63,902 nucleotides of DNA, taken from the NCBI GenBank assembly GCA_964016885.1, contig OZ024750.1:30690099-30754000 (forward strand). The letters run 5' to 3'. The stretch comes from Eledone cirrhosa. Lineage: Eukaryota. A model generated the notes under the pieces. It saw only the letters and a program-made list of their open reading frames with translations, was not told where the DNA came from and made no database searches. Below, piece by piece: positions 517-57,988 of this stretch. The translations under genes and the position numbers were made by a program. How positions within the stretch are numbered: the stretch's first letter is position 1; the number at the start of each line of letters is the position of its first letter.

Positions 517-650
517 CTCATATTTATATATATACGCTTCTCACTCACACACAAGAAAAACAAAAAACAAAAAAAAATAAATCAAAAATAAATTAAAAAA
601 AAAAAAAATATATATATATATTGAAATACTTAACTAAAACACACACACAC
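151..650 (+). repeat. Two ~240-260-bp 5' UTR monomers of the LINE, each with an internal (TA)n tract
   Basis: CGAACTTGTGAGTAC...AAAACACACACACAC starts at 151 and 388; the same monomer is at ~23505-23836 on the minus strand. Confidence 0.9.
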
Positions 651-661
651 TCAAAACTAGA

Positions 662-1830
662 ATGGCTAACCAGCAAAAATCCAAACAGAACTGGTCTGAT
701 AATGAAATCGACATTCTAATAAACACATGGCATTGCCTTTCCCAAACAGAAAATATAGATGCTTCATCTCTGAACGACATTGCTAAACGTACAGTTCAAT
801 TTTTGAAAACTCGATCTGAACAACAGATTCAAAATAAATTAAAGCAAATCGAAATTGCTTTTAAATTAATCAATAAACATTTGGATAAACTACGGTGTGT
901 TTTCTCTTCGAATGCTGTCCAGCAGCAGCAACAACAACAACAGCAGCTACAACAGCAACAACAACAACAGCAACAACAACAACAACAGCTACAACAACAA
1001 CAACAACAGCAACAACAACAACAACAACGACAACAACAGTGTGAACCACTCCTTGATTCATCAACAATGGCCGATCTACTAAATGAAACTATTGACCCCC
1101 CAGTGGCCTCTGTCTCACAGCATGAAACGCCACATCCTTTCTCTGGCCCAGCAGTCCAATCATCACCACTGCCAACATCTCTGCCTACTACTACTACTAC
1201 TACTACAACATTTTTGTCTACTGCTATGTCAAGGAATTTACCTTCTAATACCAGAACAAGAACTCTCCCTCCCACAGTCCACAAAGGTCGTCAAATCCTA
1301 CCCAAACCATCATCTACACCTCTCACAACACCCACACCCACATACCCACCCACTCGAAACCCCATCATTTGCCGCTACTCTCTACGCTATAGAATATGTA
1401 CGGATAGTGGCTGCAAATTCACCCATTTACCTAGGACAAAACGATCTATCCCCACAAACAGCCACCACCATAATACATACTCTATTTTAACACCAACACA
1501 ACCACCAATAACTCAAACAAGGAATCCACAAATCTGCCGTTTTTCCCTGCGAGACAGATTGTGTTTAGACCGGGATTGTCCCTTTACCCATCTCCCGGGA
1601 CCCGTCGGATAAATGAAAATAAAATTAAAAATAAAAGCAAAAACAAAAACCATAACCTACATAAAAATAACCACTACCACAGTCACCAACAGTCTTCTAA
1701 ACAGGAAACTTCTTCCTCTTTTTTAGCCATAATGAATCTGGCAAAAGAACTGGAAAAAAACATTCGAGCTATCACCCAGCACCACCCTCCACTATCACCC
1801 CACTGCACAAACTCCCATTGCTGCCATTAA
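662..1830 (+). pseudogene. ORF1 of LINE copy A (Myb/SANT-like N-terminus, polyQ, two CCCH fingers), one frameshift near 1600
   Basis: ORFs 662-1612 and 1561-1830 together equal the intact 394-aa ORF1 of copy B. Confidence 0.88.
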
Positions 1831-4800
1831 CAAACAAACAAATTAACAACACACCAAAACAATTAAAACCATCCACTCTCGCCTCTACATTTTTGCTTAA
1901 CGCCCAAGGCATCAGCCCTTCCACCAATACTCAAAAATGGAAGATCAAATTCCTGGAGGACTGGATTGATGTCCATCCAAACCACATCCCTTTCTTCGTC
2001 CTCACTGAAACCCATCTCAGTAACCTCCACTTGGAAGCCGAGGTGAAAGTGAAAATTTCAAAGCCATCCGTGCTGATCGCGCTGGCAGAAGAAAGGGCGG
2101 AACTGCCATTTATGTCCATAATTCTTTCTCAACAGAGGCTATGAACATATTCACTAATGGATACTGTGAGGCAGTCACTGTATTCAGTCAAACCAACAAC
2201 CTATTAGTAGTTGGGCTCTATAGGCCACCCCAAACGCCTGTACCATGCTTCAAGGAATGCCTCAACAGCATAAAGTGTTTCATCCAAGAGTGTCACCCTG
2301 ACAACATCTTAATGATGGGGGACTTCAACCTCCCCGGAGTTGACTGGTCCACAAACACCCTGCCACCAGGTTCTTCTGCCTCAACCTCTGACAGGGAAGC
2401 TGTGGAATCGCTTCTTGACTTCATGGATGATTTCTTCCTATCCCAACTAGTGCTCGAACCAACGAGGTGCCACAAAAACGTCCTAGACTTAATTTTCAGC
2501 AATCACACTGACAATATCCACAATATTGCAGTGGAGAAAACTCTACTCTCTGATCATGACATGGTTCTCTGTGATCTGAGTTTCCACCGTCCAATATACA
2601 AACCCAATGTCATTTCTCCTGTCCATCCGTTTGACGCTATGGATTTCCACAATGCAAACTGGGAAGCGATCAGTCATGATCTTGCACATGTCGACTGGTC
2701 CTTCACGCACACTCATACACCCACTAACATCAAAAAGTCCTGGCAGACATTTGTGGACACTGTTACAAACATATGTGCTAAACACACCCCATTAAGAACT
2801 ATAAACAAATCTAAGAGCAGAATCCCTAGAAATAGAAAAACACTCATCAGAAAAATTAAGAGAACGAACAAAAAAATCAACAAGCTGAAATACTGTCAGC
2901 AGCAACACATCAACTTGACTGCCATTTCATCACTAGAGATTAAAAAACATAACTCCAAAACAACATAATGTCCCTCATCAACAATCAGAGAAGAGCTGAA
3001 GAGGCCTGGGCCATTGAGAAGATCAAACTCAATCCCAAAGTGTTCTTTTCATTTGCAAAAAAACACAAAATCACTGGCTCTACTGTTGGCCCTCTAATTG
3101 ATGAAAATGGCACTCTTCAAGACAATGCTAAAACCATGGGTGAGATACTGCAGAAACAATACGGCTCTGTTTTCAGCAATCCTGATATGGCCGATCTGGG
3201 CTGTATCGGCGATGTTACTCCCCATTACACCTTATCGGACATAACGTTTGGCGCCCCTGATGTCTTGGCGGCAATAAAGGAAATCAAGCATAATTCAGCA
3301 GTAGGTCCCGATAGGTTCCCTGCTTGTGTCTTGAAGGCGTGTCAACACCAACTTGCTTCTCCTCTTGCCAATCTGTGGCGGAACTCACTGGATGCTGGAT
3401 ATGTGCCAGAAAACCTTCTATCCCAGTCTGTTGTCCCAGTTTTCAAAAAGGGAAACAAATCCCTTGCCGTGAATTACCGTCCAATCTCACTCACCTCTCA
3501 TATCATTAAGGTATTTGAGCGAGTGGTGAGATCGCGAATGACCCACTTCCTTGAGAGTAACAATATGCTGAACTCCAACCAGCATGGATTCCGTAATGGA
3601 AGGGATTGCCTGACGCAACTACTGCATCACTTTGATGACATTTTGAGAGCCTTGGGAGAGGGTTCCAACACTGATGTTATCTACCTTGATTTCAGCAAGG
3701 CCTTTGACAGGGTTGATCATAACATTCTACTGAGAAAGCTGTCCAATATTGGTGTCACTGGAAAGCTGCTGCAGTGGATCAAGAGCTTCCTGTCAAACAG
3801 AACCCACATGTTGTAGTTGAGGGAGTCAAATCAAGCCCAGCCAAAGTCAGTAGTGGAGTCCCACAAGGCACTGTGTTGGGCCCACTTCTCTTCATCATCT
3901 ATATTAATGACATCACTGACATCATCAAACACAGCAACATTAAAATTTTCGCTGATGATTCAAGCTCCAAAAGGTCATCAATGGCGTGGATGACCGGATA
4001 AGCCTTCAGTCAGACCTACTGGCTGTTACCCAATGGGCAGAAAAGAACAACATGTTACTGAACGAAGACAAATTCGAACTGATCCACTTTGGAAAAGAGG
4101 ATGCTCTGAAACTCCCGTACTCCCTTCCCTCCGGGGAAACTCTCGTGGCATCTAACAACATCAGAGACTTGGGAGTAACCGTGGACAGCAACATAAGCTG
4201 GACCACGCATATAAGCAGCAAAGTTGACATGGCCCGCAGAATGTGTTCCTGGATCCTCAGAACCTTCCAGTCGAGAGATTCCCGCACCATTATCCTTCTC
4301 TTCTCTACTTTCGCCCGACCACACCTTGAATACTGTTGTCCACTGTGGTCTCCCACACGAAACAAAGTATCATGAAACTTGAAGCTCCTCAAAGGGCAAT
4401 CACGAAAAAGATAGATGGCATGTCAGACCTTGACTACTGGGGTCGATTGGAAAACCTGAAACTTTACTCACTCCAACGTCGCCGTGAGCGTTATATTATC
4501 TGCATGATGTGGAAAATGTTCCATCATCACTGCCCAAATGATGTTGGCATCGCCTTCAAGATACACCCAAGGCTTGGGCCCCGTGCTATCCGTCCCATTC
4601 AAAATCTAAATCGCAAATCATAACAACAATACGGCACAATTATTTCACCTCAATCGGCCCTGCTCTCTTCAACATCACACCAGGACACGTCAAAACAGAA
4701 ACTGACCACACAAAATTCAAGAAGTCTTTGGACAAATTCCTCCAAGTAATCCGGACAAACCACCCACACCCGGATATGTCTCCGCAAACAGTAATTCTCT

Positions 4801-4831
4801 TCTCGAATGGGCCATGGTGCCCAAATCCTGA
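1818..4831 (+). pseudogene. ORF2 (APE endonuclease + reverse transcriptase) of copy A, split by ~7 single-base deletions
   Basis: Consecutive fragments carry ETH, GDFN, SDH, YRPISL, DFSKAFD, GVPQG, FADD motifs; collinear with copy B ORF2. Breaks may be assembly errors. Confidence 0.88.
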
Positions 4832-4950
4832 ATTGAAAGACTTCGCCAGGTGGTGCTATTAAGTTAGACATGGCCTGGGCCAATACTGGCCAAAACATTT
4901 CAAAGTTATTCAAAGTTATATATACATATATATATATACATATATATACA

Positions 4951-5004
<54 letters not shown>

Positions 5005-5005
5005 C

Positions 5006-5054
<49 letters not shown>

Positions 5055-5056
5055 TA

Positions 5057-5166
<110 letters not shown>

Positions 5167-5181
5167 AATATATATATGTAC

Positions 5182-5222
<41 letters not shown>

Positions 5223-5359
5223 CATATATATATATGTATATACATATATATATACATATATAATATACATATATATATATACATATATATATATACATAT
5301 ATATATATATACATATATATATATACATATATACATATAATATATATATATACATATAC

Positions 5360-5390
<31 letters not shown>

Positions 5391-5391
5391 C

Positions 5392-5426
<35 letters not shown>

Positions 5427-5447
5427 CATATATATACATATATATAC

Positions 5448-5484
<37 letters not shown>

Positions 5485-5488
5485 CATG

Positions 5489-5574
<86 letters not shown>

Positions 5575-5594
5575 CATATATATTATATATATAC

Positions 5595-5669
<75 letters not shown>

Positions 5670-5676
5670 CATATAT

Positions 5677-5775
<99 letters not shown>

Positions 5776-5840
5776 CATATATATATATACATATATATAT
5801 ACATATATACATATATATATATATACATATATATATATAC

Positions 5841-5923
<83 letters not shown>

Positions 5924-5935
5924 CATATATATACA

Positions 5936-6037
<102 letters not shown>

Positions 6038-6112
6038 ATTATACATATATATATATATATATATACATATCTATATATATACATATATATATATGTATAT
6101 ATACATATATAT

Positions 6113-6205
<93 letters not shown>

Positions 6206-6211
6206 CATATC

Positions 6212-6347
<136 letters not shown>

Positions 6348-6348
6348 C

Positions 6349-6433
<85 letters not shown>

Positions 6434-6434
6434 C

Positions 6435-6495
<61 letters not shown>

Positions 6496-6500
6496 CATAC

Positions 6501-6537
<37 letters not shown>

Positions 6538-6543
6538 CATATC

Positions 6544-6626
<83 letters not shown>

Positions 6627-6694
6627 ATACATATATATATATATATACATACATACATATATATATATATATACATACATATATATATATATAT

Positions 6695-6795
<101 letters not shown>

Positions 6796-7033
6796 CATAT
6801 ATATGTATATACATACATATATATATATACATGTATATATATAGATAATTTAATATATCAACTAACATAAGCGCACCGATGCACGTCCATTCCAGCAAAT
6901 ACACAGGTTATGTCATAGTACCTAGGTGGTTCAATGCAGGAGGATGCAGAACAATAATATAAAAGACGTAAAATAAGAAAATATTTTTTTTTAAATTTTT
7001 TAAAAAATTTTTTACTTACTTACTTAAATTTTC

Positions 7034-7115
7034 ACTCCAACTAATTAGTTTCTGCAATGGGATAAAGACAGTTACGTAATCCAACTGTCGAGAATTCATT
7101 GCGTCATCAGGGAGT
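7034..7115 (-). ncRNA. Type I hammerhead ribozyme
   Basis: ACTCC-CTGATGA-C-GCAATG...GACAGTT/AACTGTC...CATTGC-A-GAAA-CTAATTAG-TT-GGAGT; stems I, II and III all pair, GUU cleavage triplet. Confidence 0.88.
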
Positions 7116-7218
7116 CTATTCTCAGCTGAGTCTCCAGGCAATGCGCGGACACTGGCGGCTCATATAAAAATAATAATAATTCGGTAGATAGAACAGCTGG
7201 AGACTCAGCTGAGAATAG

Positions 7219-7300
7219 ACTCCCTGATGACGTAATGAATTCTCGACAGTTGGATTACGTAACTGTCTTTATCCCATTGCAGAAACTAATTAGTTGGAGT
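7219..7300 (+). ncRNA. Type I hammerhead ribozyme
   Basis: Same motif; stem II variant GTAATG/CATTGC (G-U pair). Confidence 0.87.
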
Positions 7301-7371
7301 GAAAATTTAAGTAAGTAAGTAAAAAAATTTTTTAAATTTTTTAAAAGATATTTTCTTATTTTACGTCTTTT

Positions 7372-7454
<83 letters not shown>

Positions 7455-7525
7455 CATATATATATACATATATATACATATATATATACATATATGTACA
7501 TATATATATATACAATATATATACA

Positions 7526-7609
<84 letters not shown>

Positions 7610-7611
7610 TA

Positions 7612-7785
<174 letters not shown>

Positions 7786-7814
7786 CATATATATATATAC
7801 ATATATATATATAC

Positions 7815-7845
<31 letters not shown>

Positions 7846-7863
7846 CATAATATATATATATAC

Positions 7864-7930
<67 letters not shown>

Positions 7931-7931
7931 C

Positions 7932-7962
<31 letters not shown>

Positions 7963-7983
7963 CATATATATACATATATATAC

Positions 7984-8020
<37 letters not shown>

Positions 8021-8024
8021 CATG

Positions 8025-8112
<88 letters not shown>

Positions 8113-8132
8113 CATATATATTATATATATAC

Positions 8133-8169
<37 letters not shown>

Positions 8170-8220
8170 CATATATATACATATATATATATATATATAC
8201 ATATATATACATATATATAC

Positions 8221-8257
<37 letters not shown>

Positions 8258-8261
8258 CATG

Positions 8262-8349
<88 letters not shown>

Positions 8350-8370
8350 CATATATAGATATATATATAC

Positions 8371-8407
<37 letters not shown>

Positions 8408-8434
8408 CATATATATACATACATATATATATAC

Positions 8435-8507
<73 letters not shown>

Positions 8508-8568
8508 CATATATATATATACATATATATATACATATATACATATATATATATACATATATATATAC

Positions 8569-8651
<83 letters not shown>

Positions 8652-8652
8652 C

Positions 8653-8701
<49 letters not shown>

Positions 8702-8707
8702 CATACA

Positions 8708-8767
<60 letters not shown>

Positions 8768-8838
8768 ATTATACATATATATATATATATATACATATCT
8801 ATATATATACATATATATATATGTATATATACATATAT

Positions 8839-8887
<49 letters not shown>

Positions 8888-8932
8888 CATACATATATAT
8901 ATATATATATACATATATATGTATATATATAC

Positions 8933-8985
<53 letters not shown>

Positions 8986-9055
8986 CATATATATATACAT
9001 ATATATACATATATATATACATATATATACATATATATATATACATATATATACA

Positions 9056-9093
<38 letters not shown>

Positions 9094-9113
9094 CATATAT
9101 ATTATATATATAC

Positions 9114-9144
<31 letters not shown>

Positions 9145-9158
9145 ATACATATATATAC

Positions 9159-9233
<75 letters not shown>

Positions 9234-9240
9234 CATATAT

Positions 9241-9337
<97 letters not shown>

Positions 9338-9416
9338 CATATATATATATACATATATATATACATATATACATATATATATATATACATATATATATAT
9401 ACATATATATATATAC

Positions 9417-9589
<173 letters not shown>

Positions 9590-9664
9590 ATTATACATAT
9601 ATATATATATATATATACATATCTATATATATACATATATATATATGTATATATACATATATAT

Positions 9665-9711
<47 letters not shown>

Positions 9712-9719
9712 CATACATA

Positions 9720-9757
<38 letters not shown>

Positions 9758-9763
9758 CATATC

Positions 9764-9899
<136 letters not shown>

Positions 9900-9900
9900 C

Positions 9901-9977
<77 letters not shown>

Positions 9978-9979
9978 CA

Positions 9980-10039
<60 letters not shown>

Positions 10040-10044
10040 CATAC

Positions 10045-10079
<35 letters not shown>

Positions 10080-10085
10080 CATATC

Positions 10086-10166
<81 letters not shown>

Positions 10167-10184
10167 ATACATATATATATATAT

Positions 10185-10215
<31 letters not shown>

Positions 10216-10236
10216 CATACATATATATATATATAT

Positions 10237-10305
<69 letters not shown>

Positions 10306-10333
10306 CATACATATATATATATATATACATACA

Positions 10334-10398
<65 letters not shown>

Positions 10399-10466
10399 AT
10401 ACATATATATATATATATACATATCTATATATATACATATATATATATGTATATATACATATATAT

Positions 10467-10501
<35 letters not shown>

Positions 10502-10556
10502 CATATATATATACATACATATATATATATATATACATATATATGTATATATATAC

Positions 10557-10607
<51 letters not shown>

Positions 10608-10677
10608 CATATATATATACATATATATACATATATATATACATATATATACATATATATATATACATATATATACA

Positions 10678-10715
<38 letters not shown>

Positions 10716-10735
10716 CATATATATTATATATATAC

Positions 10736-10770
<35 letters not shown>

Positions 10771-10781
10771 CATATATATAC

Positions 10782-10854
<73 letters not shown>

Positions 10855-10861
10855 CATATAT

Positions 10862-10958
<97 letters not shown>

Positions 10959-11039
10959 CATATATATATATACATATATATATACATATATACATATATA
11001 TATATATACATATATATATATACATATATATATATATAC

Positions 11040-11086
<47 letters not shown>

Positions 11087-11111
11087 CATATATATATATA
11101 CATATATATAC

Positions 11112-11212
<101 letters not shown>

Positions 11213-11333
11213 ATTATACATATATATATATATATATATACATATCTATATATATACATATATATATATGTATATATACATATATATATACATATATACA
11301 TATATATATATATGTATATATACATATATATAT

Positions 11334-11384
<51 letters not shown>

Positions 11385-11390
11385 CATATC

Positions 11391-11440
<50 letters not shown>

Positions 11441-11474
11441 CATACATATATATACTATATATATATATATATAT

Positions 11475-11529
<55 letters not shown>

Positions 11530-11531
11530 CA

Positions 11532-11611
<80 letters not shown>

Positions 11612-11613
11612 CA

Positions 11614-11675
<62 letters not shown>

Positions 11676-11680
11676 CATAC

Positions 11681-11717
<37 letters not shown>

Positions 11718-11723
11718 CATATC

Positions 11724-11804
<81 letters not shown>

Positions 11805-11820
11805 ATACATATATATATAT

Positions 11821-11851
<31 letters not shown>

Positions 11852-11872
11852 CATACATATATATATATATAT

Positions 11873-11971
<99 letters not shown>

Positions 11972-12209
11972 CATATATATGTATATACATACATATATAT
12001 ATATACATGTATATATATAGATAATTTAATATATCAACTAACATAAGCGCACCGATGCACGTCCATTCCAGCAAATACACAGGTTATGTCATAGTACCTA
12101 GGTGGTTCAATGCAGGAGGATGCAGAACAATAATATAAAAGACGTAAAATAAGAAAATATTTTTTTTTTAATTTTTAAAAAAATTTTTTACTTACTTACT
12201 TAAATTTTC

Positions 12210-12290
12210 ACTCAACTAATTAGTTTCTGCAATGGGATAAAGACAGTTACGTAATCCAACTGTCGAGAATTCATTGCGTCATCAGGGAGT
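12210..12290 (-). ncRNA. Type I hammerhead ribozyme (1-nt deletion in stem I)
   Basis: Core intact; CTCAACT instead of CTCCAACT. Confidence 0.75.
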
Positions 12291-12763
12291 CTATTCTCAG
12301 CTGAGTCTCCAGGCAATGCGCGGACACTGGCCGCTCATATAAAAATAATAATAATTCGGTAGATAGAACAGCTGGCGAGGACTGGATTCTATGTACTGAA
12401 ATTCTCACTGCTTCTAGTCAAATGGCCGATTCTAAAGAATCAATCACGTGACACAGAGGCTAGTTAGAAGGAATGGGATGGTAAGATGACTGGCGCCTAC
12501 TAACACCCCAAAATATTTAGAAGTGGTTTTGGCAGGTTTGCTCGACAAATCAGTGATTTGGAGATAAATATAGATAATTTAATATGTCAACTAACATAAG
12601 CGCACAGATGCACGTCCATGCCAGCAAATACACAGGTTATGTCATAGTACCTAGGTGGTTCAATGCAGGAGGATGCAGAACAATAATATAAAAGACGTAA
12701 AATAAAAAAATACTTTTTAAAAAATTTAAAAAAAAAATTTTTTACTTACTTACTTAAATTTTC

Positions 12764-12845
12764 ACTCCAACTAATTAGTTTCTGCAATGGGATAAAGACA
12801 GTTACGTAATCCAACTGTCGAGAATTCATTGCGTCATCAGGGAGT
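12764..12845 (-). ncRNA. Type I hammerhead ribozyme
   Basis: Identical to 7034-7115. Confidence 0.88.
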
Positions 12846-12948
12846 CTATTCTCAGCTGAGTCTCCAGGCAATGCGCGGACACTGGCGGCTCATATAAAAA
12901 TAATAATAATTCGGTAGATAGAACAGCTGGAGACTCAGCTGAGAATAG

Positions 12949-13030
12949 ACTCCCTGATGACGTAATGAATTCTCGACAGTTGGATTACGTAACTGTCTTT
13001 ATCCCATTGCAGAAACTAATTAGTTGGAGT
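12949..13030 (+). ncRNA. Type I hammerhead ribozyme
   Basis: Identical to 7219-7300. Confidence 0.87.
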
Positions 13031-13101
13031 GAAAATTTAAGTAAGTAAGTAAAAAATTTTTTTAAATTTTTTAAAAGATATTTTCTTATTTTACGTCTTT
13101 T

Positions 13102-13147
<46 letters not shown>

Positions 13148-13321
13148 CATATATATATATATATACATATATATTACATATATATACATATATATATATA
13201 CATATATGTACATAATATATATATACATATATATACATATATATATATATATATAGATATATATATATATATATATACATATATATGTACATATATATAT
13301 ATATATATATATACATATATA

Positions 13322-13495
<174 letters not shown>

Positions 13496-13552
13496 CATAT
13501 ATATATATACATATATATATATATACATATATATATACATATATATATATAC

Positions 13553-13683
<131 letters not shown>

Positions 13684-13684
13684 C

Positions 13685-13715
<31 letters not shown>

Positions 13716-13730
13716 CATATATATACATAT

Positions 13731-15323
13731 ACTCTTTTACTCTTTTACCTGTTTCAGCCATCCGGCTGAGGCCATGCTGGGGCACCGCCCTTGCTGCTAC
13801 ACACTTTATCTCCAGCCTGTATAGGTTGGCCACTGGTGTAGGAGGGAGTTTGTTGCTGCTGCCCTTAGGTTTCCCTCGTGTCTTGCTGTGGGCTCATCCG
13901 GGATCCTGGATAACAAGGTGTCGAGATGTTTCTTAAAGACATCCACCTCCACGTCATGCAAGTCTCGCAGATGCCTCGGCAGCCTGTTGAAGAGTTGAGG
14001 GCCCTTGAATCCCAGGCTATTGCAATACCTGCTCCTTATTCTAGATGTGGAAGACGGGACCTTTGGCACCACACAGTGACGTCCTGTTCGACGGTTGGTC
14101 CAGCTCCCAATGCCAAAGTTTGGTGCTAGTCCCTCCAGGATTTTCCACATGTAGATCACTGCGTATCTCTCCCGTCTTCGCTCCAAGGAGTAGAGGTTCA
14201 GTTCCTTCAGCCTCTCCCAGTAGCTTGTCTCCCTCATCTTGGCAATCCTCTTGGTGTAGCTTCGCTGGATTGCCTCAAGCTCTGTGGTTAGTTTGACACT
14301 ATGGGGTGACCACAGCTGGGAGCAGTAGTCCAGGCGGCTTAGGACAAAAGTCCTCCACAGTGTCAACATGGTGTCTCGATCTCTTGTAAGGAAAGTCCTC
14401 AAGATCCAGCCAGCGAATCGTCTACATGCTGTCGCCACCTTCATGATGTGTGAAGAAAAAGATGCATCATCGCTCATGTCTATGCCCAGGTCTCGTATCG
14501 ATTTTGACACGGGGATATCGGTCCCTCCTGGTCCTGTGTAGCTGTGTTCCGCTATATTTGTGTTTGTGTTTGCAGGTTTGTATTGTAGGGCTTGGAATTT
14601 GCCAGCATTAAACTGCATGTTGTTTTCTTCCGCCCATCTGTATATGGCATCCAGATCCTGCTGTAAGAGGGCAGTGTCAGCCGGGTTTTTGATTGCCTGT
14701 GCTACCTTAGTGTCATCAGCATAGCTAGTGAGGGATGTTGTTGCATGCACCACAGAGGGCATGTCCGAGAGAGCCACCAAAAACAGTAGTGGTCCCAGGA
14801 CTGTCCCCTGAGGCACCCCACTTGTTATCGGTGTTTCCCTCGAGAGAGCCCCATTTGCTGCGACTGCCTGGCTTCTGTCCCTCAGGAAGCCATGCAGCCA
14901 CTCACCTACTTTTCCAGTTATGCCGAGTCCGTGTAGTTTGTGACATATCATTCCGTGGTCGACCTTGTCAAAGGCCTTCGCAAAGTCAAGATATATCACG
15001 TCTACATGTGAGCTGTCTAGTAGCTGTCTCAGTACCCAGTCGTAGTGATGTAGCAGCTGTGTAAGGCAGCTTCTTCCTGGGCGGAAGCCATGTTGCGTGC
15101 TAGTCAGGCGGTCATTTTCTTCGAGGAAAGTGATTAGTTTCTTTCTGACGACTCGCTCCATGACCTTACTGATATGCGACGTCAGGGAGACTGGCCTATA
15201 GTTCTTGGCCTCCGCTCTACTACCTCCTTTATGGATAGGGCATATTGTGCCTTCTTTCAGCTCCCTGGGTAGTACACCGCTAGCCAAGGAGCTTCTGAAG
15301 AGCATCTTCAGTGGAGTTGCTAA
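13731..15323 (-). mobile_element. 5'-truncated LINE, family 2 (same broad clade as family 1), inserted in (TA)n
   Basis: RT plus C-terminus, 3' UTR hairpin and (AAAAGAGT)2 tail; TA tract on both sides. Confidence 0.93.
13806..15323 (-). CDS. Truncated reverse transcriptase, ~505 uninterrupted codons
   Basis: [47 protein letters not shown]; the YI N-terminus of the called ORF is microsatellite. Confidence 0.85.
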
Positions 15324-15333
15324 ATATATATAC

Positions 15334-15370
<37 letters not shown>

Positions 15371-15374
15371 CATG

Positions 15375-15464
<90 letters not shown>

Positions 15465-15484
15465 CATATATATTATATATATAC

Positions 15485-15521
<37 letters not shown>

Positions 15522-15522
15522 C

Positions 15523-15553
<31 letters not shown>

Positions 15554-15566
15554 CATATATATATAG

Positions 15567-15617
<51 letters not shown>

Positions 15618-15632
15618 CATATATATACATAC

Positions 15633-15717
<85 letters not shown>

Positions 15718-15782
15718 CATATATATATATACATATATATATACATATATACATATATATATATATACATATATATATATAC

Positions 15783-15865
<83 letters not shown>

Positions 15866-15877
15866 CATATATATACA

Positions 15878-15913
<36 letters not shown>

Positions 15914-15921
15914 CATACATA

Positions 15922-15989
<68 letters not shown>

Positions 15990-16058
15990 TACATATATAT
16001 ATATATATATACATATCTATATATATACATATATATATATGTATATATACATATATAT

Positions 16059-16109
<51 letters not shown>

Positions 16110-16154
16110 CATACATATATATATATATATATACATATATATGTATATATATAC

Positions 16155-16189
<35 letters not shown>

Positions 16190-16286
16190 CATATATATAT
16201 ACATATATATACATATATATATACATATATATACATATATATATACATATATATACATATATATATATACATATATATACATATAC

Positions 16287-16393
<107 letters not shown>

Positions 16394-34635: not shown

Positions 34636-35123
34636 TACCTGGAGTTGCGACCGATTAATAGTAATTGGAGAGACCAACGGAAATATTGTTTCCTCGGTCC
34701 GATTTGACGAAAGTCGATCGTTCCTATATATATATATATATTAGAAAGAGTCAAGACCCGACGGCTGGGGTCTTGTCGTTTCGACTGGTAATACCAAAAT
34801 CCAAACATTATATATATATATATAAACAGACTAAATAAAGATGGCGTAGAAAATACAATGCAACGGGAGAAAACAATAGCACCACTGACGATGTTGCAGA
34901 TGTGCAACGAAAGAACTTTGATAAACTATATATATGTGTTTGTGTCTATATTGTATCTGTATTATTTTTGACCGTTGGTCAGTCAATGGCAACATTAAGG
35001 ACCGAATAAATTAGATTACCGATATAAAAGACACAGAAGCGAAAAGCGAAAACCAACCAAACAGTGAGTGTGTTCTGTTATTAATTCTGGCAATATTACA
35101 CAAATATGGCCCTCCCCAAGTAT

Positions 35124-35161
<38 letters not shown>

Positions 35162-36880: not shown

Positions 36881-37050
36881 TATTTGTACATGTTTGTTAT
36901 TTTACAGATAAATAAAATGATTAAAAAATCAGTGTCAAAAAAATCAACTTGTACCTGAAAGACAAACCATCTACATGGGTACCAGATTCGCTGTCTTAGA
37001 AAAATAAATCATACCACAAATGCGCCTTCACAAGTAAATCGACACAAAAC

Positions 37051-38457
37051 ATGAATCTCTATAAAAACACAAGAAAACAGTCAATTCATTGCGATAATCA
37101 CTCAAAAGGTTTGATATATCCAAATGTAAGTAATTTTCCTTTTGTTAATACTGGAAGTAACAATGCATCAATCTCCTTAAACGACAGTAAACGAAGGTTG
37201 ATGGCTTCCAGTATTAATAGCCGCAGATCAAATCAAAATATTGATAAGTCATACAATATTTGCAATAAGAATCACCAGAAAAATTATAATAATTTACAGT
37301 TTGCTATAAACGATAATTGTGCAGCTGAAGTTAGTTCTAGACGAAAGTTAACAAAAATGTGTTCAGATAATAATAAACATTCTAGTTATATGAATAATAC
37401 GAAAGAAGTTTCTTTTATTTCATTAAGTCAAATAGATGGAAAATATTGTAAACAACCTTGGTATGTACCTAACTTTGATTATTGTCTATCAAAAACCTCT
37501 GAGTGTTCTATAATGGATATTCAACGTGCGACAAATCTGTCTAAACAGCATGGCAGTTTAAGAAACATAAAAAGACAAACGATTCCTTCGAATAACAAAA
37601 TAGAAGCAACAGCAGATGTTTGTAACTTTAGAAAAATCATTGGTAGCCCCGAACACTGTTTGCAAACTGAATCAACGAACTTACAGAATTACCCAGGGCT
37701 GTCTGTCCAAAACGATATTTTAAAAGCGAACAATGCTTCTGCCAATCACAACAGCAAAACAAAGGAAGAAATAAAGAAGGAATCCTTGAACACGACATTA
37801 GAAATATTTACTAATGACTCTTCTGCTGTCACAAATGATTCAAATAACAAAAGAATGATATTGAAAAGCACTACAAAATATGCTCAAAAACATAGCTTTC
37901 GGGGAATAAAAACGAAGGATAATCTTAATCAAAATAAAGTAATTTTGACGAAAATGGAAAAGAATGATTTAAATGAAACGGTGAATGCAAGGAATATAAT
38001 ACAACACAAAAATAATCAAATTTCAGCCTTCCAGCTTGTTACGGCGGGAAAGAATGGGAGAAGGCACCAAAGAAAGACATTAGAAGATGAAACAGTAACT
38101 TCTAACTATGTTACCAGAGGATATTTAAAACCAGACAAAAAACAAAATTTGCCTGCGTTAACAGGTTTAAAGCTACCTTTACAAATATCTAACAAATATC
38201 TTATTCCTTGCCATTGGAAATATCTCAAGAACCATTCACATCAAGCTACACAAAGACAGACAAGCGGAAGTGTGTGTTTTAACACATGCCCTGCACTTCT
38301 GACCTTAAGAAACGTTGTCCGCCACGATGTAACATCCAGACAGTCAGCTGCTAAAGAAATCAATGAGGACAGAATCCATAAGTGGTTGGAAGACTGTTGT
38401 AAATTAGTTGCCGATACTAACTTTTCCAATATATCAGTATCTTCATTTTTAACGTAA
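37051..38457 (+). CDS. Uncharacterised N/K/S-rich host protein, 468 aa, single coding exon
   Basis: 1.4-kb ATG-to-stop ORF in non-repetitive AT-rich DNA; upstream splice and promoter signals; no domain recognised. Confidence 0.6.
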   Translation: MNLYKNTRKQSIHCDNHSKGLIYPNVSNFPFVNTGSNNASISLNDSKRRLMASSINSRRSNQNIDKSYNICNKNHQKNYNNLQFAINDNCAAEVSSRRKLTKMCSDNNKHSSYMNNTKEVSFISLSQIDGKYCKQPWYVPNFDYCLSKTSECSIMDIQRATNLSKQHGSLRNIKRQTIPSNNKIEATADVCNFRKIIGSPEHCLQTESTNLQNYPGLSVQNDILKANNASANHNSKTKEEIKKESLNTTLEIFTNDSSAVTNDSNNKRMILKSTTKYAQKHSFRGIKTKDNLNQNKVILTKMEKNDLNETVNARNIIQHKNNQISAFQLVTAGKNGRRHQRKTLEDETVTSNYVTRGYLKPDKKQNLPALTGLKLPLQISNKYLIPCHWKYLKNHSHQATQRQTSGSVCFNTCPALLTLRNVVRHDVTSRQSAAKEINEDRIHKWLEDCCKLVADTNFSNISVSSFLT

Positions 38458-44036: not shown

Positions 44037-44849
44037 CACAGTTCAAGAGTAACCAATCTTAAAGAGAGAGATGGAGATAGTAGAGGAGATATGAGAGGAG
44101 AGATTGGTGAGTTAGTGAGTAATATTATTATTATTATTAATATTATTATTATTATTCTCTACATTCCTTATATCAAACTAAAATATGTTGACAATCTTTT
44201 AATAATGTCTTCCTTGTGAAGTTTGTGGTCTTGTTTTGCTTAACTAATGCATATATATATATATATATATGTATACACACACACATATATATATAATAAG
44301 TTGACAGAACTAGCATAGGTATCACTGCTCGAACCGGTTGTATCTCAGCGTACTCAATAGGTAGTGTAAAATACACACACAGAGTATACACATAGTTATT
44401 CGCTTCAATAGAACACACGTAAATTGGTACCTTCAATTCTTCCCGAACTCGAGTTTTGGCCACACTTAATGCAGCAGTAGGGTGCACTTCACCCTCTGTC
44501 CGCATATATTATGCAACAATGCATAATTGGCGCATGTGGCTTCATCAACGGGTTTCGCCTAATCAATAACCAATCGATCAACAGAATTCGACTTCAGTCT
44601 GTGCCGGCTATGACTGATGATTATTTTACAAACACCAACTCAATAATGAGAAAGTTGGTTATATTACTAAATCATTTCAAATTATTGATTAATTTAAAAA
44701 TTATTTGAAAATCATAAACAATGTCTTTCATAAGGAATATAGTAATGAAAGGGCTGAACAAAAAATGACACTTTGAATAATGCAGCCCTAGATAAATAGG
44801 ATAGGATGGTTATAACTGGAATGTCTTTTATGATAGGTCTGTGCTAAAC

Positions 44850-47080
44850 AACAACAACAACAACAACAGTATCTGAGCACAGAGTTAGGTGAAATATGAT
44901 TATAGCCCTGCTAAATCAAGACAAAAGAACAATGACAACAACAACAACAAAAACAACATCGAATATAATCAGTGTTAGGTGGAATGTGATCATAGCTCAA
45001 CTAAATCAGGACTTATGTGGTGGTCAACAACAACAACAACAACGACAACAACCAATATAATCACAGTGTTAGGTGGAATGTGATCATAGCTCAACTAAAT
45101 CAAGACTTATATGGTGGTCAACAACAACAACAACAACAACAACCAATATAATCACAGTGTTAGGTGGAATGTGATCATAGCTCAACTAAATCAGGACTTA
45201 TGTGGTGGTCAACAACAACAACAACAACAACAACCAATATAATCACAGTGTTAGGTGGAATGTGATCATAGCTCAACTAAATCAAGACTTATATGGTGGT
45301 CAACAACAACAACAACAACAACAACCAATATAATCACAGTGTTAGGTGGAATGTGATCATAGCTCAACTAAATCAAGACTTATATGGTGGTCAACAACAA
45401 CAACGACAACAACCAATATAATCACAGTGTTAGGTGGAATGTGATCATAGCTCAACTAAATCAGGACTTATGTGGTGGTCAACAACAACAACAACAACAA
45501 CAACCAATATAATCAGTGTTAGGTGGAATGTGATCATAGCTCAACTAAATCAAGACTTATATGGTGGTCAACAACAACAACAACAACAACAACCAATATA
45601 ATCACAGTGTTAGGTGGAATGTGATCATAGCTCAACTAAATCAAGACTTATATGGTGGTCAACAACAACAACAACGACAACAACCAATATAATCACAGTG
45701 TTAGGTGGAATGTGATCATAGCTCAACTAAATCAAGACTTATGTGGTGGTCAACAACAACAACAACAACCAATATAATCAGTGTTAGGTGGAATGTGATC
45801 ATAGCTCAACTAAATCAGGACTTATGTGGTGGTCAACAACAACAACAACAATAACCAATATAATCACAGTGTTAGGTGGAATGTGATCATAGCTCAACTA
45901 AATCAAGACTTATATGGTGGTCAACAACAACAACAACAACGACAACAACCAATATAATCACAGTGTTAGGTGGAATGTGATCATAGCTCAACTAAATCTG
46001 GACTTATGTGGTGGTCAACAACAACAACAACAACAACAACCAATATAATCACAGTGTTAGGTGGAATGTGATCATAGCTCAACTAAATCAAGACTTATAT
46101 GGTGGTCAACAACAACAACAACAACAACAACCAATATAATCACAGTGTTAGGTGGAATGTGATCATAGCTCAACTAAATCAAGACTTATATGGTGGTCAA
46201 CAACAACAACAACGACAACAACCAATATAATCACAGTGTTAGGTGGAATGTGATCATAGCTCAACTAAATCAGGACTTATGTGGTGGTCAACAACAACAA
46301 CAACAACAACAACCAATATAATCACAGTGTTAGGTGGAATGTGATCATAGCTCAACTAAATCAAGACTTATATGGTGGTCAACAACAACAACAACAACAA
46401 CAACCAATATAATCACAGTGTTAGGTGGAATGTGATCATAGCTCAACTAAATCAAGACTTATATGGTGGTCAACAACAACAACAACGACAACAACCAATA
46501 TAATCACAGTGTTAGGTGGAATGTGATCATAGCTCAACTAAATCAAGACTTATGTGGTGGTCAACAACAACAACAACAACCAATATAATCAGTGTTAGGT
46601 GGAATGTGATCATAGCTCAACTAAATCAGGACTTATGTGGTGGTCAACAACAACAACAACAATAACCAATATAATCACAGTGTTAGGTGGAATGTGATCA
46701 TAGCTCAACTAAATCAAGACTTATATGGTGGTCAACAACAACAACAACAACGACAACAACCAATATAATCACAGTGTTAGGTGGAATGTGATCATAGCTC
46801 AACTAAATCTGGACTTATGTGGTGCTAAACAACAACAACAAGAAAAACAACAATCAAAATGATCAGAGAGTTAGGTGGAATATGATCATAGTTCTATTAA
46901 ACCAGGACTTATGTGGTGCTAAACAACAACAACAAGAAAAACAACAATCAAAATAATCAGAGAGTTAGGTGGAATATGATCATAGTTCTATTAAACCAGG
47001 ACTTATGTGGTGCTAAACAAGAAGAAGAAGAAAAACAACAACTAATATGATCAGAGAGTTAGGTGGAACGTGATCATGGT
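44850..47080 (+). repeat. ~90-bp satellite (65-bp core + (CAA)n), ~23 copies, 811-bp higher-order repeat
   Basis: AATATAATCACAGTGTTAGGTGGAATGTGATCATAGCTCAACTAAATC...GGTGGT(CAA)n. Confidence 0.95.
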
Positions 47081-49985: not shown

Positions 49986-50039
49986 TGGTCACCTGGGATT
50001 GATTATGCTTTCCTCTTAGAAAAATATCATAAGAGGGCT

Positions 50040-50748
50040 AGGAATTTTTTACCTACATTAGTTTTCACATTCAGTGAGAAAGGTGCTGCAAACCACATGA
50101 CATCTTTATGTCTAGATGTAGGGCACTGATCTGCAGAGTACATGATTTTTTTAGGAGAGGCCACTGTTACTTAATGCTGAATTATAGTAGGATGACTATC
50201 AAAGGTGGCTCTGCTGGAAGAGAGGTTGGAAACCCTCTTACTAATGTTGTTAATGAGTCCTTATGGATGTACTGGAGTTTCTCACTGGGTTTGTGGTATG
50301 GTCTATATGTGCATGTCTGTAGGTTTAAGTTAATGTCTAAGAAGTTAACATTGGTGAGGTTGGTTACTATCGTAATTTTTAAACCTAGGGAGCGATTAAG
50401 TTTTCCTAAAGATGTCCAGGTCATGGCCACTTTTATGGCTGGATAGTGCCCGACCGTCATCAAGATATAGCCCTGTATGGAAATCAGAGAATTTATTCTG
50501 TATAGTGTCTAGAATAAATAGGCTCACCAGATCACATATATTGGTGCTGTCAAATGATCCCATTGGTACATCAAATAGGTCATTGGTAGTAGATTTTTTT
50601 TATCCATGGGTTGCCATTGCTAAAGAAGAGGGTTTCCCTGCAGTAGGATATGACTAATCAGTCCAAACCATCTATGTTAGTGAATTTAGTAGCGAAATCA
50701 AGGGCCTTATCAAGTAGGATATTGAGGGGTAAAAGTCCATAATGTCAT
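50040..50748 (-). pseudogene. Decayed Penelope-like element RT
   Basis: DIMDFYPSI, LLDKALDFA, FDVPMGSFD, GLYLDDG, GLKITI...VNFLDINLNL...YRPYHKP across frameshifts. Confidence 0.8.
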
Positions 50749-52941: not shown

Positions 52942-54524
52942 TTATTTCTATCTCTCACTCCCTTTCTCCCTCTTTTTTCTTATTTCTTCCTTTCTTTCTC
53001 TTTCTCCAGTCCCACTTCCTTTTTCTGTCAGTCTCTCTTCATTTGAGCCCTACCTATATTTCTCTCCTCATGTCTAGCTGTAAATATTTTCCATTCAATG
53101 TAGTCTCTCACTGCACAAATATAACTGTTATATTTACATTTGAAAGAATCTCCCAATTATGTACACTTTGCTTTGCTTTGTAACAGCATGATATATGTGA
53201 TTGATATATGATATATATCTGCGCATGAATTTACAATGAATATAAATGTACAAGGTATTTTTAGCCCACAACCTTTAAAAGAACTACTGTCCAGTTTTTT
53301 TTATCTATTTGTTGCCTTTGCTCTCAATAAAACAGCTTGACTATGGCTTTTGACATGTTTTATACATATCGACTTAAAATGAACAGCAGAAATAATCATA
53401 AAATCCGTCTTAAATTAAATGTATTTGTTTTCTAATCAATATTTATATAACTAAATGTTGTTCAAGCATAATCTATGACAACGCCCAGGGTAACATCTGT
53501 TTATATTTACAATTCAAATACGATATCTTAAATCATAGTATTTGTTTATTTTTGAATGGTTCGTAGTTTGCTTTTGTACTGGTAACTAGTAAGACATAAA
53601 AAGAAAGAGAATGTAGGACAATCTGAGAAAAAGAAATATTAGAATTAGTTCAAAGAGTACAATAATAAGGGAAATAACTCAAGAAAGACAATGGAAATAA
53701 TTTAGATGAGTTAGTTATGGTGATTTATTTTCAGGTCTCTTCAATAATCGTCCAATCCACCACCACCCTGCTTATTTGCTTTTCAGATTTTTTCGGATTG
53801 GATAATAGAAAATACCAGTCAAGAGAAGTGGATTAGCAGAGTTGTTAGAGAAATAAATGAAATGATTTGTATTGTTCTAGTTTTGAGTTCAAACCTTGTT
53901 GTAGCATACTTAGTTAGTAGAGTTAACCAGTTACCTGGTTTAACATCACTACATTGCCCTTGGGTGACATCTGTACAATTCAGTTTGTTGCAAGTATTCA
54001 AACATGGTCTCTGGTTTGAAGTTATAGCCTCCTCGAATAGTCCCAAAAGTCTTGAAAAGTACCCTGATTGAATGTTGTACACGTTTTGCGAGTCACTGCT
54101 TCCATGCAAAACATGAGAGGGTTTCAGACCCCTGTTGTGGTAGATCTCCTCTATCAGAAAGCTCAGATACCAGGATACCTTAACAAGAGATACTGGAATT
54201 GATAAAGATGACTGACAAATTTTGATGGGAAACAGAGACTGTGTGAAGTTGTGCTTGCTGTCTTGCATAAGGGCAATAGATAACAAAATATTAAAAACAA
54301 TGGACTTTCCTCTTAACCTCCTCCTTTATGTCTAAACAGTAAAAAGGTCATTATATTTGTGGTAGACGCAAACAACAAATTATCTTTGGAATAGAATTGT
54401 AATGTTTTGGTGAGGAAACCTTTCACAATCAGTGAGATTATTATATTTTGGATCTGGTCCTAACAGCTGCACACAATGTGAGAACATCTGGGTCCTGAGA
54501 TTTTCTACAAGTTCTACAATAGAT

Positions 54525-57500: not shown

Positions 57501-57988
57501 AAGGTTCACAATAGACCTAGCTGAAGAAAGTCCTGGCCATGAAGTATACAAGGTTCACAATAGACCTAGCTGAAGAAAGTCCTGGCCATGAAGTATACAA
57601 GGTTCACAATAGACCTAGCTGGAGAAAGTCCTGGCCATGAAGTGTACAAGGTTCACAATAGACCTAGCTGAAGAAAGTCCTGGCCATGAAGTGTACAAGG
57701 TTCACAATAGACCTAGCTGAAGAAAGTCCTGGCCATGAAGTGTACAAGGTTCACAATAGACCTAGCTGAAGAAAGTCCTGGCCATGAAGTCTACAAGGTT
57801 CACAATAGACCTAGCTGAAGGAAGTCCTGGCCATGAAGTATACAAGGTCACAATAGACCTAGCTGAAGAAAGTCCTGGCCATGAAGTCTACAAGGTTCAC
57901 AACAGATTAGAGATGAAGAAAGTCCTGGCCATGAAGTCTACAAGGTTCACAACAGACCAAACTGAAGAAAGTCCTGGCCATGAAGTGC
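54525..57988. repeat. 49-bp satellite, ~70 copies
   Basis: Unit GACCTAGCTGAAGAAAGTCCTGGCCATGAAGTVTACAAGGTTCACAATA. Confidence 0.97.

Follow-up and report, generated by a model that had tools for sequence, protein, structure and literature searches.

The element at positions 12018 to 13104 of the window (the whole 63,902-nt stretch of Eledone cirrhosa DNA analysed, from contig C10, positions 30690099–30754000, of a 3.0-Gb animal genome) is, by sequence definition, a metazoan non-LTR retrozyme that behaves as a non-autonomous Penelope element; it is a two-armed insertion into (TA)n of a non-coding hammerhead repeat, which a Penelope-type enzyme probably copied in trans from one circle at both ends of the target. 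The kind of element is already known, and the sequence-level features of non-LTR retrozymes are found in it: a type I hammerhead in each unit, tandem units, no coding capacity, dispersed copies and a GC content below 50%. The most informative part is the inverted second arm together with two fixed 3′ ends, which was absent from the first description of this DNA.

The long arm of the insertion (12018–12930, minus strand) comprises 1.65 units; its 3′ end lies at a position termed site B, ~205 nt past the predicted cut site of the hammerhead, and runs into the (TA)n-type microsatellite at 7380–12017. The short arm (12927–13104, plus strand) is inverted and 178 nt in length; its 3′ end lies at site A, ~83 nt past the predicted cut site in the subfamily of this element, and runs into a second (TA)n-type flank at 13105–13731. 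The 5′ ends of both arms meet at a 4-nt microhomology (12927–12930), as seen in the sequence and in the overlap of the BLAST matches, and the ~120 nt between sites A and B form a “tail” that is carried by the long arm only (12018–12134, minus strand). The upstream type I hammerhead is intact (12764–12845, minus strand), with its CUGAUGA core at 12840–12834, and cleavage is predicted to follow GUU at 12769; the downstream hammerhead (12210–12290, minus strand) has its core at 12285–12279 and a predicted cut after 12214, with one G missing just past the cut site. A third hammerhead occupies the inverted arm (12949–13030, plus strand), with a predicted cut after 13025. The earlier note had described 12018–12930 as a direct tandem monomer bounded by two minus-strand hammerheads 555 nt apart, and the spacing of the predicted cuts agrees with this; the monomer between them (12214–12768, minus strand) is a candidate circular RNA with ORFs of at most 35 aa. 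It was also correct that the ~195-nt segment at 12376–12570 (minus strand) completes the monomer, as this segment, which occurs once at the locus and is an ordinary piece of the family unit, continues back into the unit start, and that the monomer holds no meaningful ORF; ATG ORFs reach at most 35 aa, and stop-free frames at most 52 codons, when the unit is doubled. The direct repeats at 12571–12933 and 12018–12378 are 96% identical, but the insertion does not end at 12930 as had been described, since it extends to 13104 as the inverted arm with its own hammerhead.

Two sibling copies are present in the window, at 6842–7374 and at 17358–17891, both with an identical arm junction; each has one 555-nt unit fewer, and DNA duplication, with one unit lost, is their probable origin. 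A structural descriptor finds six hammerheads in 63.9 kb, all of them in the element and its two siblings; the downstream hammerhead of the element fails the strict form of this descriptor, as the G right after the cut site is absent. Window positions 4917–19210 are duplicated on a second contig (G000:C2:338013302–338024999; loci L040, L057 and L002), where the short copy, the TA tract, the long copy and a second LINE are all found, the LINE being longer there; this duplicate is either a recent segmental duplication or assembly redundancy. The C2 copy of the insertion (L002) has the G, and its internal differences from the window copy are five 1-nt homopolymer indels; the missing G may therefore be an assembly error. 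Whether the window copy is capable of double cleavage hinges on the reality of this 1-nt gap.

The repeat forms a dispersed multicopy family with a unit GC of 0.36–0.37. A 20-mer over helix III and the cut site has 9,418 exact matches in the genome while its reversed control has none, and together with the confinement of descriptor matches to copies of the element this argues that the hammerhead pattern is not due to chance; a site-A 20-mer has 8,188 genome matches, and a tail 26-mer has 11,549 with up to two mismatches. There are three subfamilies, F1 (555 nt, that of the window element), F2 (~530 nt) and F3 (~540 nt), which share roughly 72–86% identity and all still make multimers; the repeat is present and variable in four contig sets. 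The copies were studied in two samples. The position sample consists of 121 loci on contig C1: 62 are all the clusters among the first 100 matches of the cut-site 20-mer, 19 further loci come from the site-A 20-mer, and 40 come from the tail 26-mer list, of which about ten later clusters were left out. The ranked sample consists of 90 further non-overlapping loci ordered by identity. Three mixed or nested insertions (L277, L284 and L330) were excluded from the allele and rare-variant counts. As a separate matter, a 4.9-kb tandem segmental unit at 139.32 and 139.52 Mb of contig C3 (G000, L031–L034) carries one retrozyme insertion and is present in at least six copies.

In dispersed copies the 3′ ends are fixed, the 5′ ends vary and the arms are opposed. 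The arms end in (TA)n in 317 of 334 cases, and target-site duplications, which exceed 4 bp in those non-LTR retrozymes that have them, are unreadable at ends that lie inside (TA)n. The 3′ ends fall at one of two sites, A or B, and the two arms of an insertion do not share a site: among 82 two-armed insertions of the position sample, both ends can be classified in 65, and all 65 pair A with B; none are A+A or B+B, and the other 17 have an end at neither site. This rule was first seen in the initial 62 loci (35 of 35 classifiable insertions) and was repeated in the last 40 (23 of 23). In the ranked sample, 48 of 60 two-armed insertions are A+B, one is A+A, one is B+B and ten are unclassifiable; the lone A+A case (L003) is a three-piece insertion and the lone B+B case (L168) has a broken short arm. 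A mild excess of arm 5′ ends is seen family-wide 6–12 nt past the cut site (10–13 compatible arms per position, with a mean of 3.2), where a short A/T palindrome is possibly a favoured annealing point of two cDNAs. The involvement of Penelope that the earlier note had proposed is supported by the marks of insertion, namely (TA)n ends, A+B pairing, and a partial tandem with an inverted, 5′-truncated copy and two fixed 3′ ends that delimit the tail; a tail on one inverted pLTR (PMC3846280, PMC8557442) and two reverse-transcription start sites with both strands extended (PMC11167929) are described as Penelope traits in the portions of these papers that were available.

All parts of one insertion began from one sequence, since alleles are shared within a locus and between its opposite arms. 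At alleles shared in the population, F1 copies (55 loci) differ at 1.1 per 1000 sites within the same arm, 0.7 between opposite arms and 29.8 between loci; the corresponding values are 6.7, 7.3 and 51.0 for F2, and 3.1, 4.8 and 26.2 for F3. Alleles that are common to opposite arms and found at no third locus occur at 0.40, 2.22 and 0.83 per 1000 in F1, F2 and F3, as against 0.02, 0.09 and 0.08 between loci, which makes them 10–25 times commoner between arms than between loci; private differences are alike in all comparison classes, as mutation after insertion predicts. The predicted cut site leaves no scar on these copies: in 329 junctions, part of which were picked by a 20-mer across the cut site and are thus biased toward intact junctions, cut-site indels and substitutions are under background. 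In 265 arms, copying passed the cut site ~311 times with no surplus of stops there (p=0.48), and a recount over 334 arms agrees. Nor do 5′ ends accumulate at the cut site: five arms end there, compared with a mean of 3.2, and equally high values occur at 35 of 161 positions; the few arms that do end at it (L289, L014, L021 and L386) are not above those of neighbouring positions. Template jumps between cleaved linear monomers are ruled out by this lack of scars and stops. The arms mostly overlap on the unit, and non-overlapping twin priming on one molecule fits only 4 of 65 arm pairs. The options left all involve two priming events on a continuous template, which may be a single circle copied with strand displacement, a pair of like molecules or a multimer that was not cut.

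The predicted hammerhead consists of a 5-bp helix I, the CUGAUGA core, a 51-nt helix II region, GAAA, a palindromic helix III and the GUU cut site. Searches with Rfam models give no hammerhead match at either threshold, which is probably explained by the 51-nt span of helix II; the Rfam miRNA and snoRNA matches are far under their thresholds and were rejected, the best of them reflecting the inversion hairpin. When 16 divergent copies are compared, 96% of cells in the proposed helices are paired, with slid controls reaching at most 44%, and double-sided changes number 28, compared with 9.7 in shuffles; helix III is fixed by the extraction pattern and hence uninformative, so that the covariation signal is that of helices I and II and includes a second helix past the large internal loop of helix II. 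Recurrent variants are found at 0 of 11 core positions in F1, 1 of 11 in F2 and 2 of 11 in F3, and outside the core at 90 of 494, 168 of 484 and 75 of 486 positions, respectively. Because the helices covary and the core is depleted in recurrent variants, the hammerhead is considered, on these sequence comparisons, to be kept by selection. Folding predictions place the active fold of a lone motif 2.5 kcal/mol above an inactive pairing, while two motifs are predicted to fold as a double hammerhead (−52.8 versus 2 × −21.6 kcal/mol); the same switch is reported for tandem hammerheads with a weak helix III in the available part of PMC4209133. Circular monomers are predicted to be more stable than shuffles, with z scores of −3.3, −4.8 and −4.5 (25 shuffles each). 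The ribozyme may be slow, as its cut site is GUU and helix II has an unpaired extra C and an unpaired extra A at its base. Further points weigh against the reading proposed below: only 7 of 62 position-sampled loci carry two same-strand hammerheads that are strictly intact, eight of nine Xenopus retrozyme dimers did not cleave (10.64898/2026.07.22.740005), and insertion of the anole element in vitro did not depend on hammerhead cleavage (PMC11167929). Marks of A-to-I editing were not seen among 76 locus-shared rare variants, with five A>G and 18 T>C changes.

From these patterns we infer a route in which tandem transcripts would be cut by paired hammerheads into ~550-nt monomers, which would likely be ligated into circles; a Penelope-type enzyme acting in trans would then use the two nicked target ends as primers on one such circle, starting from site A with one and from site B with the other. 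How far each cDNA travels round the circle would vary (arms of up to ~4 units are seen), and a short microhomology would join the two cDNAs head to head. A circle is favoured because the hammerhead is under selection, the units are identical at birth and long arms are rare; the longest arm has 4.15 units, and only 4 of 192 position-sampled arms reach at least two, from which it would follow that multimers must be regenerated if arrays are not to shrink. The earlier proposal that partial multimers are left by rolling-circle reverse transcription is upheld in that one continuous template fits best; a linear uncut multimer would also supply such a template. A more specific version of the circle model is held tentatively, at somewhat less than even confidence: a dimeric, strand-displacing enzyme would extend both strands of the target from two fixed sites ~120 nt apart on a single ribozyme circle, and the long, covarying helix II would define a new subtype of hammerhead, one that is active in tandem transcripts and switched off in the circle.

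The linear template just mentioned, an uncut multimer or read-through RNA copied as a non-autonomous Penelope parasite, with the hammerhead aiding processing or protein binding and no circle being formed, is regarded as unlikely. Seamless junctions, the lack of stops at the cut site and, if the source locus is young, allele sharing would all follow from it, and the anole element uses unprocessed RNA in vitro by the account available from PMC11167929; however, daughters should then inherit the 0.5–2% differences between units of the source, whereas differences within a locus are nearly all private, and arrays could only shorten, yet the three subfamilies still make multimers at the divergence given above. 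It is decidedly improbable that the circle is correct and that the arms derive instead from two RNA molecules of one source locus, joined for instance through the palindromic helix III and placed at A and B by a protein dimer. The overlap of most arms, which obliges a single template to be copied with strand displacement, speaks for two molecules, as do a 12-nt palindrome, which favours RNA dimers, and the predicted dimer of the anole protein (PMC11167929, in the part available); with thousands of loci and several subfamilies, however, mixed-allele arm pairs would be expected, while opposite arms are as alike as tandem units.

Very little probability is given to the proposal that a single target end primes and that the inverted arm is a fold-back, self-primed copy of the first cDNA. 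Self-priming has been put forward for inverted pLTRs in the available text of PMC3846280, it would account for allele sharing, and the window arms (913 and 178 nt) fit it, as do 44 of 65 position-sampled pairs; the arm lengths are nevertheless incompatible with any order of folding back in 21 of those 65 pairs and in nine of the 48 ranked ones, and the position sample shows no correlation between the lengths of the two arms. Arm lengths thus exclude fold-back as a general route, and single loci may still fit it. Hardly any credence attaches to the view that the unit merely serves as the pLTR of a complete Penelope element, or that it is a satellite grown by unequal crossover, which is refuted for the bulk of copies. 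Local DNA duplication is real (three copies in the window and two on C2), tandem growth by crossover is discussed by Li et al. in the part of that work available (10.64898/2026.07.22.740005), and the search for an ORF rested on only four Penelope proteins as queries; against this, the unit is joined to a Penelope ORF at 0 of 121 position-sampled loci, the arms continue into the unit itself, and crossover produces neither the fixed 3′ and variable 5′ ends of dispersed copies nor their opposed arms. The preferred reading, held as more likely than not, is the copying of one circle from both target ends.

The earlier note had taken the element for a candidate retrozyme and had proposed looking for the monomer beside a Penelope ORF elsewhere in the genome; the result at the 121 loci supports a non-autonomous family of retrozyme type, as the monomer is not always just a pLTR. 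An ORF with reverse transcriptase and GIY-YIG domains between pLTRs is absent at all 121 loci. At five loci (L271, L370, L376, L377 and L388) a Penelope ORF lies upstream on the same strand within 1.5 kb; a TA run separates the ORF from the unit in four of them, the hammerhead of another family lies between the two in L271, and the unit in L377 is an insertion at the TA end of the neighbouring Penelope element itself. No ORF-linked relative was found through Penelope protein searches, which sampled ~90 loci among tens of thousands of Penelope pieces in the genome, through hammerhead scans downstream of endonuclease matches or through searches for site-A and tail motifs; a monomer profile run over 350 loci and the window likewise revealed no ORF-linked relative and no shared autonomous 3′ end. 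A young, ORF-bearing Neptune-like family displays the same TA targeting and the same pairing of a short and a long arm (4 of 4 insertions in one set, and ~19 versus 2 by eye); in this one young family the 3′ end is unrelated to the hammerhead unit, and the family is therefore considered a model of the mechanism and not the partner.

Copies of the Neptune-like family are found at L192:1019–4837 and L193:1927–5193, and a solo 3′ end is present at ~34830–35130 of the window; its stop-free frame of 1090–1270 codons contains a long asparagine-rich insert of a sort known from rotifer elements (PMC3846280, in the part available), and its two 3′ ends lie ~45–67 nt apart, one per arm. At 17.01–17.47 Mb of contig C12 (L149–L155 and L159), a ~60-kb tandem segmental unit with one Neptune-like insertion occurs in at least eight copies. 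The window also holds a broken fragment of another Penelope reverse transcriptase (50030–50599, minus strand). At least ten other type I hammerhead families occur among loci L071–L330, several of which have a helix II of 26–63 nt and a palindromic helix III; some are tandem, with a spacing of 467–468 nt in L108 and L194, and some lie 450–1000 nt behind Penelope endonuclease ORFs (L288, L271, L281 and L321).

Elsewhere in the window there are two LINE families of the apurinic-endonuclease type, which lead at their 3′ ends into the same (TA)n tracts and appear to target TA; the first is found at 638–4862 (plus strand), 19231–23516 (minus strand) and 28238–28385, and the second at 13735–15324 (minus strand). 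The copy at 19300–22437 has an open ORF2 of 1045 codons (Pfam RVT_1 and Exo_endo_phos) and an ORF1 with a Myb/SANT-like start, a poly-Q stretch and two CCCH-like motifs. A tRNA-derived SINE was considered as an identity for the hammerhead unit and rejected, as the unit has no tRNA match, two 3′ ends and no match to the window LINEs. Minisatellites with 92–97% match are located at 30595–31016 (42-nt repeat), 31774–32620 (94 nt), 44847–47077 (91 nt) and 54504–57986 (49 nt), and a stop-free frame of 485 codons at 37000–38457 (plus strand), in DNA that looks non-repetitive, is possibly a large exon.

By the accounts available, the metazoan non-LTR retrozymes (PMC7229834; 10.64898/2026.07.22.740005) resemble the present family in their non-coding units, which are arranged in tandem and each contain a single type I hammerhead, a GC content below 50%, thousands of copies, a palindromic helix III, a predicted circle that is self-paired, and Penelope elements in the same genome. 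The unit of 530–570 nt is larger than the retrozymes of 170–400 nt that have been tested and inside the 51–972 bp range of Li et al. (10.64898/2026.07.22.740005). The present family differs from these retrozymes, as they are described in the same two sources, in that helix II spans 51 nt, copies are mostly short two-armed inversions with fixed (TA)n ends instead of long arrays, and the unit yielded no pLTR homologue. The Penelope-like elements that bear an endonuclease (PMC3846280, PMC8557442 and PMC11167929, in the portions available) share the 5′-truncated partial tandems with an adjacent inverted copy, a pair of fixed 3′ ends that lie downstream of the hammerhead, and the AT-rich or (TA)n targets. 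In contrast to those elements, no ORF is present here and the tail is 115–122 nt instead of 30–40 nt; moreover, the Penelope tail is described as optional on one inverted pLTR in what is available of PMC3846280 and PMC8557442, whereas here each of the 65 classifiable insertions of the position sample carries it on one arm and not on the other.

The minimal hammerheads of Penelope type, as far as the available part of PMC4209133 describes them, also have a short helix I, a larger helix II, an extra nucleotide after A9, a G10.1–C11.1 pair, a palindromic helix III and a predicted action as dimers; the present motif departs from them in that helix III is formed (3 bp with a tetraloop, or 10 bp in the dimer), an additional A precedes G12, and helix II includes both a large internal loop and another helix that covaries. 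The nonautonomous elements of Chlamys, such as MRC1 (PMC8557442, in part), are likewise non-coding, mobilised by Penelope, provided with pLTRs and inserted as head-to-tail multicopies; they generally resemble the 3′ end of an autonomous family and mostly lack a canonical hammerhead, whereas no partner match was found here and the hammerhead is conserved. Within the accessible literature, to which subscription papers mostly do not belong, no count of obligatory A+B pairing, no allele test for a single template and no retrozyme with a helix II of this length was found; the hammerhead listings in the supplements of PMC4209133, PMC7229834 and PMC8557442 may hold similar motifs.

Reverse transcription of animal retrozyme circles by Penelope enzymes has been proposed and not demonstrated (PMC7229834; 10.64898/2026.07.22.740005), and the later steps in the origin of the Penelope inverted copy and tail are left open (PMC11167929), as far as the available text of these sources goes. 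The present family offers genomic constraints that can be counted, namely strict A+B pairing, one template sequence per arm pair and no stop at the cut site; with these, and with a defined 555-nt substrate and two named start sites, both the copying of circles and the origin of the inverted copy and tail become testable. If a dimeric enzyme does prime both target strands on one circle, the Penelope tail and the inverted pLTR would be obligatory products of insertion, and animal retrozymes would replicate through circles.
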